Source: a virus
Reading direction: 5' to 3' (one strand)
Virus record (IMG/VR): IMGVR_UViG_3300035696_000755
Length of the DNA stretch: 10,079 nucleotides
Position 1 is the stretch's first letter. Each line of letters opens with the position of its first letter. The notes under the pieces were generated by a model. That model saw only the letters and a list, made by a program, of their open reading frames with translations. It was not told the DNA's origin and did no database searches. Shown here piece by piece: positions 470-4,420 of this stretch. Position numbers and translations under genes: made by a program.

Positions 470-528
470 TGAAAAAATTTTCCTGATTTACTAGCCAAAA
501 CGTCGGTGCAGCCGGTATACTGTGTGTA
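470..528 (+). promoter_or_regulatory. sigma70-like promoter with UP-element A-tract (aaaaaatttt), -35-like TAGCCA (492-497), 18-bp spacer, -10 TATACT (516-521), predicted TSS ~527. Conserved module CTAGCCAAAAC-N12-GGTATACT.
   Basis: Almost the same module recurs at 4425-4488 with identical spacing. It sits 16-25 nt upstream of the GGAGAG RBS (528-533) and ATG 544. Confidence 0.5.
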
Positions 529-543
529 GGAGAGAAAAACCTC

Positions 544-3060
544 ATGCAGCTTGGAACCCAAGGCACCGACGCAAAGATTGCTGGAAATGCTTCCGCACCA
601 TCCAGCTTCAAGATTGCAGCCTCTACCGTCACCTTCGAAATCCTGTCCAGCGGCTTGTACGGCGATAAAGTTGGAGCCGTTATCCGCGAACTGTCCTGCA
701 ATGCATGGGACGCTCATGTGGCGGCTGGCAAGCCCTACGAGCCCTTCGAGATTAACCTTCCCACCCAGTTCAATCCCATCTTCACCGTCAAGGACTACGG
801 CACCGGCCTCAAGTTCGTTAAGGGCGGATGTGAGACCTGCCACGGCACTGGCAAGCTGGCTGCTGACATTGCTTGCGACGACTGCAACGGCACGGGCGAC
901 TATGACGGCGTGATGAGCCTCTACTGCACCTACTTTGCCTCGAACAAGAACCAGAGCAATGAGTTCATCGGTGCTCTCGGTCTTGGCTCCAAATCGCCCT
1001 TCGCCTACACCAACAAGAAGGCTGGCGATGGCTCTACACAGTCGGGCGGCTTCACGGTCACCAATCGCTACAACGGTCGCACCTACATCTACACAGCCAT
1101 GGTCAAGAATGGATTCCCGACCGTGGTTCCGATGCAGGTACTCGACACGCCGGGTACTCCGAACGGTCTGGAAGTTTCCTTCCCGGTTGACCGTCGCGAC
1201 ATTTGGGAGTTCGAGAACAAGGCTGCGAACGTTTTCGAGTTTTTCCAACCGCGTCCGAAGTTGAACAAGCCCATCACTATCAGAACGCCCACCTACTCGG
1301 TGAAGACTGCTCAGTGGGGTATGCGTACCGATGAGGATACCGCACAAGGCGATGGTCTCCGGGCGATTCAAGGCAACGTGCCCTACAGCGTCGGCAACAT
1401 CGACCAGAGCCGCTTGAGTGAGGCTCAGAAGAAGCTGGTCTCAATGCCCATCGACCTGTTCTTCAACATTGGAGAACTGAGCGTGGCCGCATCACGCGAG
1501 GCTCTGCAACTGGACGACAAGACCATTGGCAACATCTTGGGACGGTTGGACGTTGTGCAGGAGAAGCTTCTGGAGGAAGTCAAGAAGAAGGTTGATGCTT
1601 GCAAGACAGCGTGGGAAGCACGGCTCAAGATTCACGAGTTGACCATGCAGACCGGCATGGGCAGTCTGGTCAACGACGCCTACAACCGTGGGTTGCTGAA
1701 TGGCAAGTACAGCTTCTTCAAGCTGGAGGGAGATTCCAAGACGGTTGGCGGGTTCAAGGTGGTTGTCAACGAACTTGACTACTTGCACGTTGAACTGCTC
1801 TCCTTCCGCTACTGCGACCGCCGCAATGCGAAGAAGTCGAAGAAGGAACCTGTCTTCGAGTTCGCAACCCCCACCAAGAGGGCACAGGCTCATCGCGATT
1901 TGGGCTCGAACATCACCGAGAAGAAAGACTACGACATCAAGCTGGACGTGAGCGAGAACGTAATCTTCGTGATTAACGACCTCAGAACCAATGCTGACAA
2001 GTACGTCAGCTACATGCTCCAGAACGACGACAGGAGCAACACCTACCGCACGGATGCAGCGGGTAATGTTCGCCGCAAGGCATTGGTGATTAACCGGCTG
2101 CGTCGTAACAGCGATATGGTGCTGGCAGGTAACGAGGCTGTCGCCATGCTCGACCGCATCGGCAACCCCCCGGTGGTCAAGGCATCCGACCTCAAGGCAG
2201 CATTCGACCCGCTGATGAAGGCTGAGAAGGCAGTACAGGTTGTCAAGCGTGAACGGATGAACGTTCGTCTCCTGCGTCGGTATGCTGAGCACACTCGGCG
2301 TAGCTCGGGCGGTGGCTGGAAGAAGCAGTGGAGAAACGGTGACGACAACGAGACGCTCAACGACCCCACGGCGACCAAGTTCTACGTGCTGATTACTGGG
2401 CACCCGACCTTTGAACCCACCAACCTGCCGGGATTCTACTATGGCAGCAACTTCATCGCTTTCGTGAACAAGGTCCGCGATTCCAACCTGTTCCCGGAGA
2501 TTGGCGAAAGCACCCCGGTGTTCGGCATCAAGGCTGGCTCCAAGCTGCTCTCAGACCCACTCTTTGTGGAGTTCCTGCCCTTCGTGAAGGCTCGGGTAGC
2601 CACGACCATCACCCCGGCTAAGGAAATGGAACTGAGCCTCGCTGTGAAGCCGTTCTCTTCGAACTGGAAGAGCATCATGGAGTACGTGGCTGAGCATCCT
2701 CAACTGCTGACAGTGGACAGCCCGTTCCGCCAGTTCTCGCTGGCAATCTACAAGGCGGAACACGCCGACCGGGATGGCCACAGCAATCTGGTAACCCTCG
2801 CCAACGCACTGGGGATTGCCATCAACAACACCGCCGACTACAATCAGGCATGGGCAAAGGTGATAAAAAATTACCCAATCCTGAAAATTTGTAACCGAAA
2901 CACCTACGGTTCTGGTACACTGGAAGAGAAGACTGTTCTGGTGGACTACATCCGGCACACTGATGAGCAGAACAAACGGTTGGTTCTGTCCGATGTCCGA
3001 GTGGTAACCGACGAAACCGCAACCGAGACCGAAGATGAAGAGGAGACCGTCAATGTCTAA
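544..3060 (+). CDS. GHKL (Bergerat-fold, Hsp90/MutL/TopoVI-B/His-kinase type) ATPase, 838 aa, with a double CxxCxGxG zinc-knuckle insertion in the ATP-lid. The large C-terminal region is unassigned.
   Basis: N-box IRELSCNAWDA (nt 682-714) fits ExxxNAxDA. G1 box VKDYGTGL (787-810) fits DxGxG. G2 box GALGLGSKSPFAY (970-1008) fits GxxGxGxxS. CETCHGTG and CDDCNGTG (829-852, 874-897) lie between G1 and G2. The RBS GGAGAG is 10 nt upstream of the ATG. The protein ends in an acidic tail (TETEDEEETVNV). Confidence 0.75.
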   Translation: MQLGTQGTDAKIAGNASAPSSFKIAASTVTFEILSSGLYGDKVGAVIRELSCNAWDAHVAAGKPYEPFEINLPTQFNPIFTVKDYGTGLKFVKGGCETCHGTGKLAADIACDDCNGTGDYDGVMSLYCTYFASNKNQSNEFIGALGLGSKSPFAYTNKKAGDGSTQSGGFTVTNRYNGRTYIYTAMVKNGFPTVVPMQVLDTPGTPNGLEVSFPVDRRDIWEFENKAANVFEFFQPRPKLNKPITIRTPTYSVKTAQWGMRTDEDTAQGDGLRAIQGNVPYSVGNIDQSRLSEAQKKLVSMPIDLFFNIGELSVAASREALQLDDKTIGNILGRLDVVQEKLLEEVKKKVDACKTAWEARLKIHELTMQTGMGSLVNDAYNRGLLNGKYSFFKLEGDSKTVGGFKVVVNELDYLHVELLSFRYCDRRNAKKSKKEPVFEFATPTKRAQAHRDLGSNITEKKDYDIKLDVSENVIFVINDLRTNADKYVSYMLQNDDRSNTYRTDAAGNVRRKALVINRLRRNSDMVLAGNEAVAMLDRIGNPPVVKASDLKAAFDPLMKAEKAVQVVKRERMNVRLLRRYAEHTRRSSGGGWKKQWRNGDDNETLNDPTATKFYVLITGHPTFEPTNLPGFYYGSNFIAFVNKVRDSNLFPEIGESTPVFGIKAGSKLLSDPLFVEFLPFVKARVATTITPAKEMELSLAVKPFSSNWKSIMEYVAEHPQLLTVDSPFRQFSLAIYKAEHADRDGHSNLVTLANALGIAINNTADYNQAWAKVIKNYPILKICNRNTYGSGTLEEKTVLVDYIRHTDEQNKRLVLSDVRVVTDETATETEDEEETVNV

Positions 3061-4329: not shown

Positions 4330-4362
4330 GGGCGGTCACGCAAACCACCGCCCACTTTTCTC
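4330..4362 (+). terminator. Rho-independent terminator 1: stem GGGCGGT / ACCGCCC, 9-nt loop, then ACTTTTCTCC
   Basis: A perfect 7-bp GC-rich inverted repeat lies 12 nt after the TAG stop (4316-4318) and is followed by a T-rich tract. Confidence 0.5.
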
Positions 4363-4387
4363 CTCGTTCATTTGGAATGCACCTAGC

Positions 4388-4420
4388 CGGGGGAGCCACA
4401 TGGCTCCCCCGTACTTTTCT
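4388..4420 (+). terminator. Rho-independent terminator 2: 10-11 bp perfect stem (C)GGGGGAGCCA / TGGCTCCCCC(G) followed by TACTTTTCTCG
   Basis: A near-perfect palindrome sits at 4388-4411 and is followed by the same ACTTTTCTC tail as terminator 1. The two hairpins are in tandem. Confidence 0.65.

Follow-up and report, generated by a model that had tools for sequence, protein, structure and literature searches.

Layout of the locus

The window, a 10,079-nucleotide stretch of viral DNA (IMG/VR record IMGVR_UViG_3300035696_000755), carries on its plus strand two adjacent genes that encode homologues of rIIA (838 aa, 544-3060) and rIIB (421 aa, 3053-4318), the proteins of Benzer's rII locus, which is among the oldest named loci of molecular genetics. 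The start of rIIB overlaps the stop of rIIA by 8 nt (ATGTCTAA). Upstream of rIIA lies a promoter-like element (465-524, plus strand) with an A/T-rich tract, a -35-like hexamer TAGCCA (492-497) and, after an 18-nt spacer, a -10-like hexamer TATACT (516-521); a ribosome-binding site, AGGAGAG (528-534), is found 3' of it. On the same strand rIIB is followed by two tandem hairpins that resemble intrinsic terminators (4330-4363 and 4388-4422), each succeeded by a U-rich tract (MFE of the region -44.2 kcal/mol, z = -5.0). A second copy of the promoter element (4425-4484) and a Ku homologue (4482-5465; Pfam Ku, E = 2.9e-31) come next, together occupying 4425-5465 on the plus strand. In two related contigs (L003 and L004) this motif is likewise found ahead of rIIA and of Ku, and the elements at 465-524 and 4425-4484 are putative promoters.

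The transcription unit is early-type and self-contained, with a sigma-70-like promoter, an A/T-rich upstream tract, translational coupling and two terminators. The preliminary description of a coupled two-gene operon is correct. Ku lies 0-1 genes after rIIB in seven of eight related contigs (the exception is L012). Because it has its own promoter and is positioned beyond the two terminators, it is a neighbour and not a member of the operon. Homologues of rIIA and rIIB were together everywhere we looked, rIIB directly following rIIA in all eight related contigs as well as in Ralstonia phage RsoM2USA and T4. The order rIIA-rIIB is conserved, and the genes are usually coupled and sometimes fused.

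Sequence and domain structure of rIIA and rIIB

rIIA and rIIB of the window are homologues of the T4 proteins. In profile searches the first matches PHROG 612 'RIIA' (E = 2.8e-108) and the second PHROG 609 'RIIB' (E = 4.8e-59). BLASTP aligns rIIA with T4 rIIA at 32% identity over 339 positions (E = 2e-41) and rIIB with T4 rIIB at 31% identity over 221 positions (E = 8e-39), and hhalign returns a probability of 100 for each (E = 1.3e-46 for rIIA). That the T4 alignments are artefacts is implausible at such scores. A Foldseek search of BFVD with rIIA gave, within its best 50 matches, named entries that are almost all rIIA proteins, and Pfam PF26926 (Phage_T4_rIIB) is found on rIIB homologues and, precomputed, on the identical protein P0121. 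Homologues of rIIA and of rIIB each occur in ∼ 2,870 GenBank phage records (∼ 5.7%). The claim that the pair corresponds to no named system has thus to be withdrawn. Judged by sequence, it is a divergent copy of rIIA/rIIB, carried by an uncultured jumbo phage and extended by two lineage-specific features: a putative zinc knuckle in the ATPase lid of rIIA and, on rIIB, a predicted extra DNA-binding domain plus an acidic tail.

Residues 11-357 of rIIA (574-1614, plus strand) form its conserved N-terminal ATPase module, which consists of a GHKL (Bergerat) domain and a transducer-like second domain. The N-box, G1 and G2 motifs, already proposed for the first gene together with the GHKL fold, are all present, and the fold is of the GHKL-transducer type. 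The module is intact, with the invariant catalytic residues Glu49, Asn53 and Asp56 and both glycine boxes, and its closest resemblance is to GHKL enzymes that act on DNA or chromatin and to Hsp90. The remainder (1615-3057, plus strand) comprises a C-terminal region (residues 358-816), which is confidently predicted to be mixed alpha/beta, and a disordered acidic tail (residues 817-838); these C-terminal ∼ 480 residues have no T4 counterpart by sequence. Searches of rIIA for Toprim, MutL C-terminal endonuclease, CW/coiled-coil, DHp and Hsp90 middle/C-terminal domains detected none of them, the first, second and fourth in agreement with the preliminary description.

Two DnaJ-type CxxCxGxG knuckles, CETCHGTG and CDDCNGTG (residues 96-118, with Cys96, Cys99, Cys111 and Cys114; 829-897, plus strand), are inserted between the G1 and G2 boxes, in the ATP-lid segment that separates G1 from the conserved LYCTYF helix. 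Pfam DnaJ_CXXCXGXG (PF00684) matches rIIA through profile positions 40-65 at 19.8 bits (E = 0.001), below the 32.7-bit threshold. The lid has two exact CxxCxGxG repeats, not the four of DnaJ, and hence at most one zinc centre. In the AF2 model the block-mean pLDDT is 86-90 across residues 91-120. We suggest that the lid loop in the window's lineage bears a single, putative four-Cys zinc knuckle. The insertion is present in 29 of 84 aligned rIIA homologues, all 29 of which keep the CxxC pairs, and is absent from T4 rIIA and the RsoM2USA homologue; the 40 best GenBank matches to the lid segment are all too short to accommodate it. Its site is a variable insertion position, where the lid loop adopts three alternative states among homologues; the minimal loop has 27 residues. 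The gene is a routine rIIA, but its Cys insertion is standard neither for most rIIA proteins nor for GHKL ATPases; to our knowledge, no lid with a zinc knuckle occurs in the Hsp90/TRAP1, MORC, SMCHD1, MutL or GyrB/ParE/topo VI-B families.

The core domain of rIIB (residues 5-236; 3065-3760, plus strand) is the counterpart of T4 rIIB residues 77-309 and includes an invariant C179-x2-G182-x-H184-x-C186 motif. C179, G182, H184, K222 and R224 do not vary among the aligned homologues, T4 rIIB included; K142, D150 and N158 are invariant in the T4-containing alignment and at least 90% conserved in an alignment of 44 sequences. The C-terminal ∼ 185 residues (∼ 237-421) are a clade-specific extension with no counterpart in T4, and we did not find it in deposited phages. 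Within it a five-helix fold of the XRE/lambda-repressor type is recognizable (helix-turn-helix, residues ∼ 320-372; 4010-4168, plus strand), followed by a disordered acidic/aromatic tail (residues 389-421, ending ...DDTDEDEEEEWDEDDEF; 4217-4315, plus strand; pLDDT below 50). Both elements had been noted in the preliminary description, and together they are confined to a small metagenomic clade. The tail had also been called SSB-like. Among the 35 closest full-length homologues, 31 share its acidity, with 9-23 D or E in their final 30 positions, but only 15 end in F or Y (the others in D, E, N, V or L); as an aromatic residue at the end is not a conserved feature, the likeness to SSB appears to be a resemblance only.

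Possible functions of the gene pair

T4 requires rIIAB for growth on lambda lysogens that express the RexAB abortive-infection system, and rIIAB pairs of five genera, with < 40% identity, all overcome RexAB, the rII phenotype having been shown for T4, MM02, EdH4, SUSP1 and N4 (PMC11879866). rIIB by itself is recognized by gasdermin/CARD defence systems, which it triggers; T6 RIIB does so with the system of Lysobacter. rIIAB is thus known as an accessory counter-defence module, and counter-defence, a role already proposed for the locus, is likely for the window pair. The pair shows only ∼ 31-38% identity with any tested rIIAB, and only in two regions, the N-terminal 350 residues of rIIA and the 230-residue core of rIIB. 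We know of no solution of the biochemical mechanism of rIIAB, even in T4, and of no solved structure. Taken as a whole, a jumbo-phage rIIAB pair that serves as a counter-defence module, probably through an ATP-clamp mechanism, is very probably the correct explanation of the locus.

We infer the clamp from related enzymes: rIIA, like Hsp90, MORC, MutL and GyrB, would be an ATP-driven, dimerizing clamp or switch with a lid that shuts on the bound ATP, and rIIB would be the partner on which it depends. The complex would, early in infection, prevent activation of a Rex-like, membrane-depolarizing abortive-infection system of the host. It would probably act on or mask a DNA-protein intermediate, a target suggested by the HTH domains of rIIB and by the affinities of the ATPase fold with DNA enzymes. 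The putative zinc knuckle may provide an interaction surface that depends on the nucleotide state of the lid. In the window's lineage the HTH of rIIB would have moved to the C-terminus, where it is followed by an acidic tail that could either mimic DNA and so be autoinhibitory or serve as a recruitment peptide. In the classical literature the T4 rII proteins are membrane-associated, and this a DNA-centred reading leaves unexplained.

Alternatively, the pair could be an rIIAB homologue that in this lineage works mainly in phage DNA transactions (for example on DNA ends or replication-recombination intermediates, together with Ku) or in gene regulation (for example as a transcription regulator), and not against abortive infection. 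We consider this unlikely, though it deserves some weight. Besides Hsp90, the rIIA module is most similar to GHKL enzymes of DNA and chromatin, rIIB carries an HTH both in T4 (N-terminal) and here (C-terminal, XRE type), Ku recurs after rIIB in the related contigs with a common promoter motif, and in classical genetics rII mutations are linked to suppression of T4 ligase defects. Iyer et al. have moreover treated rIIB as a specific transcription factor (PMC7824862). However, five phages need rIIA and rIIB only in the presence of RexAB (PMC11879866), Ku is set apart by its promoter and the terminators, and no Ku adjoins rIIAB in T4, RsoM2USA or L012. A role in DNA transactions and the blocking of abortive infection are not mutually exclusive. 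It is a doubtful proposition that rIIAB evolved, in the uncultured 300-455-kb jumbo-phage lineage, into a DNA-directed machine that combines a knuckle-lid GHKL clamp, an rIIB with HTH and acidic tail, and a persistent link to Ku. DNA ends or replication-recombination intermediates are proposed triggers of Rex-like abortive infection; if the complex acts on such DNA, the variant would be a biochemical handle on the ∼ 70-year-old question of rII function.

That rIIA is an Hsp90-like chaperone whose DnaJ-type lid knuckle binds unfolded clients, with rIIB as co-chaperone or client, is very unlikely.

The locus had been flagged as an undescribed defence or counter-defence system, its GHKL ATPase being novel and, like the HTH protein paired with it, unrelated to any named system. 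Several searches are in keeping with this: neither gene matched Pfam-A above threshold, nor was anything found for either in NCBIfam or PADLOC, DNA near-identical to the window was not found in GenBank phages, and neither the knuckle nor the rIIB extension was found in deposited phages. We nevertheless reject this reading, which is extremely improbable, on the PHROG, BLASTP and hhalign matches to rIIA and rIIB. The homology extends with high significance to T4 and to thousands of annotated rIIA/rIIB genes, the rIIB homologues bear the Phage_T4_rIIB domain, and the unusual parts are decorations on an rIIAB scaffold. Equally, we give next to no credence to a host-encoded system (prophage or defence island), for instance a defence ATPase of the bacterial MORC/paraMORC type or one like Hsp90. 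Some bacterial defence systems do contain GHKL ATPases, and a phage or prophage accessory context had been suggested, but PADLOC-DB v2 gave no match for five window proteins (rIIA, rIIB, Ku, the ATP-grasp protein and a 217-aa ORF), the long relatives are all found on contigs of 300-455 kb whose gene content is phage-type and whose synteny is conserved, and the best annotated relatives are lytic phages. The phage part of the suggested accessory context is borne out.

The main value of identifying the pair as rIIAB is corrective, since what had been flagged as a possible new defence system proves to be the long-known rIIA/rIIB module and should not enter a count of new systems. Annotation by Pfam alone misses rIIA/rIIB of divergent phages, whereas PHROGs or a direct comparison with T4 detect both at once. 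rIIAB is widespread (∼ 5-6% of phage genomes) and experimentally important, yet biochemically unexplained, and natural variants mark plastic surfaces and possible partners: the lid states, the shift of the HTH from N- to C-terminus, the acidic tail and the Ku neighbour.

Comparison with known systems

Other GHKL families (Hsp90/TRAP1, MORC2/3, SMCHD1, MutL and GyrB/ParE/topo VI-B) have family-specific partner domains that were not detected in rIIA, and with the DnaJ cysteine-rich domain (PF00684) rIIA shares the repeat motif, but in a setting, an insertion in an ATP lid, that is unrelated to J-domain chaperones. The rII genes of T4 (NP_049616/NP_049889) stand in the same order and close together, although separated by an 11-nt gap where the window has its 8-nt overlap. 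Residues 11-357 of rIIA align to T4 residues 9-317 (32-34% identity), whereas the C-terminal halves cannot be aligned by sequence and T4 rIIA has a short lid loop without Cys knuckles. The rIIB cores share ∼ 30% identity and both proteins possess an HTH. In T4 it is N-terminal and HTH_7-like (E = 5.6e-5) and the protein ends at the core; the window rIIB lacks this N-terminus and has instead its 185-residue C-terminal extension with XRE-type HTH and acidic tail. There is no annotated Ku gene in the T4 rII flanks examined.

The Ralstonia jumbo phage RsoM2USA (344 kb) is the sole GenBank phage with an rIIA homologue covering > 80% of the first gene (24% identity). Its gp39 and gp38, annotated as hypothetical proteins, form an rIIA/rIIB pair whose genes likewise overlap by 8 nt, and the rIIB cores of RsoM2USA and the window share 38% identity. 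In contrast, it has no Zn knuckle, its rIIB (334 aa) bears an unrelated C-terminal extension in which neither an HTH nor an acidic tail is recognizable by eye, and no Ku-sized gene lies within 3.7 kb downstream. Both modules of the pair also occur in one polypeptide, for example in the fused RIIA-RIIB of Escherichia phage RB43 (Q56C47, 1,049 aa; PHROG 609), whereas here the genes are separate and translationally coupled. Such natural fusions indicate that the two proteins work as one unit.

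Identity and organization of the gene pair

Gene 1 (544–3060, + strand, 838 aa) and gene 2 (3053–4318, + strand, 421 aa) sit within a run of + strand genes and almost certainly encode rIIA and rIIB. The JGI gene call P0121 has the same amino-acid sequence as the 421-aa product (100% identity), which supports the start of gene 2 at 3053. In a PHROG scan, residues 8–579 of gene 1 matched phrog_612 'RIIA lysis inhibitor' (E = 2.8e-108) and residues 5–234 of gene 2 matched phrog_609 'RIIB lysis inhibitor' (E = 4.8e-59). Direct comparison with the T4 proteins gave 32% identity over 339 aligned positions for rIIA (E = 2e-41) and 31% over 221 for rIIB (E = 8e-39). 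Profile comparison (probability 100 for each) placed gene 1 residues 11–357 on T4 rIIA 9–317 (E = 1.3e-46) and gene 2 residues 5–236 on T4 rIIB 77–309 (E = 5e-51). PF26926 (Phage_T4_rIIB) is present as a precomputed match on homologs of gene 2; the Pfam search of the window proteins left gene 2 empty because this family is apparently missing from the version searched. The locus has every testable defining feature of the rIIA and rIIB families and belongs to them. The preliminary description had proposed an undescribed system, which the PHROG and T4 comparisons overturn; the novelty lies instead in a lineage-specific architecture.

The genes overlap by caATGTCTAAcg at 3053–3060. The two also co-occur elsewhere: rIIB directly follows rIIA in all eight related metagenomic contigs examined (overlap of 4–17 nt in six). 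The order recurs in T4 (gap of 11 nt) and in the 344 kb Ralstonia jumbo phage RsoM2USA, where the overlap is also 8 nt and both genes are annotated as hypothetical. RB43 encodes a fused RIIA-RIIB protein of 1,049 aa, and the PHROG 609 profile (1,055 positions) matches gene 1 with its N-terminal part and gene 2 with its C-terminal part. The constant order, the fusions and the two-part profile are strong evidence for one functional unit. The promoter-like site TAGCCA-18-TATACT was confirmed at 492–521, within a 60-nt repeat with A/T-rich tracts (465–524 and 4425–4484) whose core, CTAGCCAAAAC-N12-GGTATACT, was counted twice where zero copies were expected. The claim that the promoter is conserved also stands: L003 and L004, relatives with 79% identity, carry the promoter-like motif ahead of both gene 1 and Ku. 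The 60-nt element is probably the early-promoter consensus of this phage. Two hairpins with U-rich tails were likewise found downstream (4330–4363 and 4388–4422; z = −5.0).

By tblastn, 2,866 of 50,697 GenBank phage records contain a gene 1 homolog and 2,881 a homolog of the rIIB core, many labelled rIIA or rIIB; this agrees with a review that puts the share of phages with rIIB in a joint operon with rIIA at ∼ 5% (PMC13434031). GenBank phages contained no relative at the nucleotide level, and RsoM2USA is the only deposited phage covering > 80% of gene 1. The nearest metagenomic homologs (35–79% identity) come from contigs that reach 310–455 kb and have phage-type gene content, which identifies the source as an uncultured jumbo phage. 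PADLOC defence models matched none of the window proteins tested.

The rIIA lid and the rIIB extension

The ATPase boxes reported for gene 1 are present (N-box R-E49-LSC-N53-AW-D56-A, G1 D84-Y-G-T-G88, G2 G143-ALGLGSKS), as are both CxxCxGxG knuckles, CETCHGTG (residues 96–103) and CDDCNGTG (111–118). An AlphaFold2 model built from an alignment of 84 rIIA homologs has a mean pLDDT of 84.9, with block means of 86–90 over residues 91–120, knuckles included. The figures listed with the structure are 17.2 for MORC2, 16.5 for ParE, 16.4 for both the phage T6 topoisomerase II ATPase and MORC3, 15.7 for SMCHD1, 14.2 for MutL and 14.0 for topo VI-B. In a Foldseek comparison against BFVD, phage rIIA proteins (KVP40, 44RR2.8t, phiAS5 and others) were matched with E-values down to 9e-41 and alignments running the whole length, but with TM values of only 0.35–0.49.

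Scoring of the G1–G2 segment in an 84-sequence alignment separates three main lid states. A minimal loop of 27 residues (GLSHEDV..LYCTYF) is found in 42 of the 84 sequences, two CxxC pairs in a segment of 55–76 residues in 29, the 17 closest homologs all among them, and a cysteine-free insertion (segment of 58–76 residues; NPAAKYV...RIGKY...G.KL...) in 12; one sequence is intermediate. The cysteine-free insertion, carried by a sister group (P0018, P0019, P0022, P0026–P0028, P0030, P0031, P0037, P0050, P0052 and P0077), occupies exactly the same site as the zinc knuckle, which makes this site a hotspot for alternative inserts. T4 rIIA has a short lid loop devoid of Cys, and RsoM2USA rIIA has no knuckle. 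When the 76-residue lid segment was searched against GenBank phages (tblastn), the best 40 matches listed spanned only 135–159 nt and thus do not include the ∼ 28-residue insertion. In a crude neighbour-joining tree the knuckle state falls into at least four separate patches. The putative knuckle is a recurrent option at a plastic rIIA site, so far apparently confined to uncultured phages. It had been singled out as unusual; it is indeed not standard for the family, but neither is it unique to this locus.

The rIIB core contains an invariant C179-x2-G182-x-H184-x-C186 motif (CSRGxHxC, residues 179–186, window 3587–3610; CSRGLHVCS in T4), and K142, D150, N158, R168, D210, K222, R224 and Y228 vary little or not at all. 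Although rIIB is usually regarded as non-enzymatic, these residues look like a metal-binding or catalytic site. Beyond the core, a C-terminal extension (∼ 237–421) that T4 rIIB does not have combines conserved KRLxRRGK and SKLFxNPLR motifs with an HTH and an acidic tail. It gave no tblastn match in GenBank phages and only 36 cluster representatives of 1.84 billion, most of them 360–470 aa long and matching in their C-terminal part, as rIIB proteins would. The extension also accompanies an insertion-free rIIA (P0084/P0155, contig L008) and one with a non-Cys insertion (P0022/P0154, contig L009), so it is not tied to the knuckle. T4 rIIB carries an N-terminal resolvase/HTH_7/HTH_28-like HTH (residues 7–50, E = 5.6e-5, just short of the Pfam threshold), whereas the window protein lacks this domain and has an XRE-type HTH in its C-terminal part (4010–4168). 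An HTH on the rIIB core is thus a family theme, its position and class being shuffled around a constant core. The acidic tail noted on gene 2 (...DDTDEDEEEEWDEDDEF) is present. Among the 35 full-length homologs closest to it, 31 have an acidic tail but only 15 end in F or Y; hence 'SSB-like' describes a resemblance and not a match. Residues 817–838 of rIIA (2992–3057) also form a disordered acidic end (TDETATETEDEEETVNV), and both partners therefore bear acidic C-termini.

Ku and other neighbours

A Ku gene (PF02735, E = 2.9e-31) lies at 4482–5465, past both terminators and preceded by the second copy of the promoter motif. Ku follows rIIB within 0–1 genes in seven of the eight related contigs (including L003 13285–14322, L005 13795–14766, L008 9949–10851, L009 9912–10820, L010 8395–9405 and L011 7860–8636), despite rIIA identities of 35–79% and differing flanks; L012 is the exception. 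Ku is a persistent neighbour of rIIAB and not a member of the operon. The T4 rIIAB flanks examined held no annotated Ku, and the 3.7 kb downstream of rIIB in RsoM2USA contain no Ku-sized gene. In L008 (70 kb), rIIAB-Ku is closely followed by genes for a DnaJ-type J-domain protein (11263–11682) and for a DNA ligase of the ATP-dependent kind (DNA_ligase_A_M, 13973–14370); the combination of Ku and ligase suggests an NHEJ-like end-joining capacity.

Further downstream, the window encodes an R2K-clade ATP-grasp protein (6808–7608, R2K_3, E = 2.8e-13), kept at the same position in L003 and L004, and a 217-aa protein of PHROG 23621, function unknown (8223–8876, E = 3.5e-36), which these two relatives also share. 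An ORF that continues past the window end (9680–10078) matches MVP_shoulder, the major-vault-protein shoulder domain (E = 7.8e-24), and at the corresponding downstream position L003 encodes a protein of 849 aa that matches both Vault_3 and MVP_shoulder (19230–21779). A vault/SPFH-like protein is unusual for a jumbo phage. A weakly PTH2 (peptidyl-tRNA hydrolase 2)-like protein (9127–9630, and 9218–9664 in L011; E = 4.5e-5, just over threshold), together with tRNA-synthetase-like, Tpt1 (PTS_2-RNA), methionine aminopeptidase and peptide deformylase genes in related contigs, indicates translation-related cargo around the rIIAB locus.

The new parts are the putative lid zinc knuckle, the C-terminal XRE-type HTH and acidic tail of rIIB, and the linkage to Ku; a limited literature search found no account of any of them.

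Proposed function and relation to known systems

T4 rIIA and rIIB are needed only when the host expresses lambda RexAB, a membrane-depolarising abortive-infection system (PMC11879866; bioRxiv 10.1101/2025.11.20.689424), and every rIIAB pair tested, from five genera and with < 40% identity, counters RexAB (PMC11879866). T6 RIIB by itself has toxic effects in E. coli and sets off a gasdermin/CARD system (PMC10312443). RexA binds DNA (PMC11077077). We favour, with some reserve, counter-defence against an abortive-infection-type system as the main role. Early in infection, rIIA and rIIB would keep a Rex-like system of the host from firing. Because it retains the catalytic Glu and every nucleotide-binding box, rIIA is predicted to be an ATP-hydrolysing GHKL clamp or switch. 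The putative zinc knuckle is carried by the lid, which shuts over bound ATP, and could then offer a partner or nucleic acid a surface that changes with nucleotide state. More tentatively, we speculate that rIIAB acts on, or masks, a DNA-protein intermediate, a reading suggested by the rIIB HTH and by the kinship of the ATPase fold with DNA-acting enzymes. The acidic rIIB tail may mimic DNA and autoinhibit the HTH, or else recruit a partner. The locus belongs to none of the MutL, GyrB, MORC, Hsp90 or histidine-kinase families, and rIIA would work like the GHKL + transducer ATPases.
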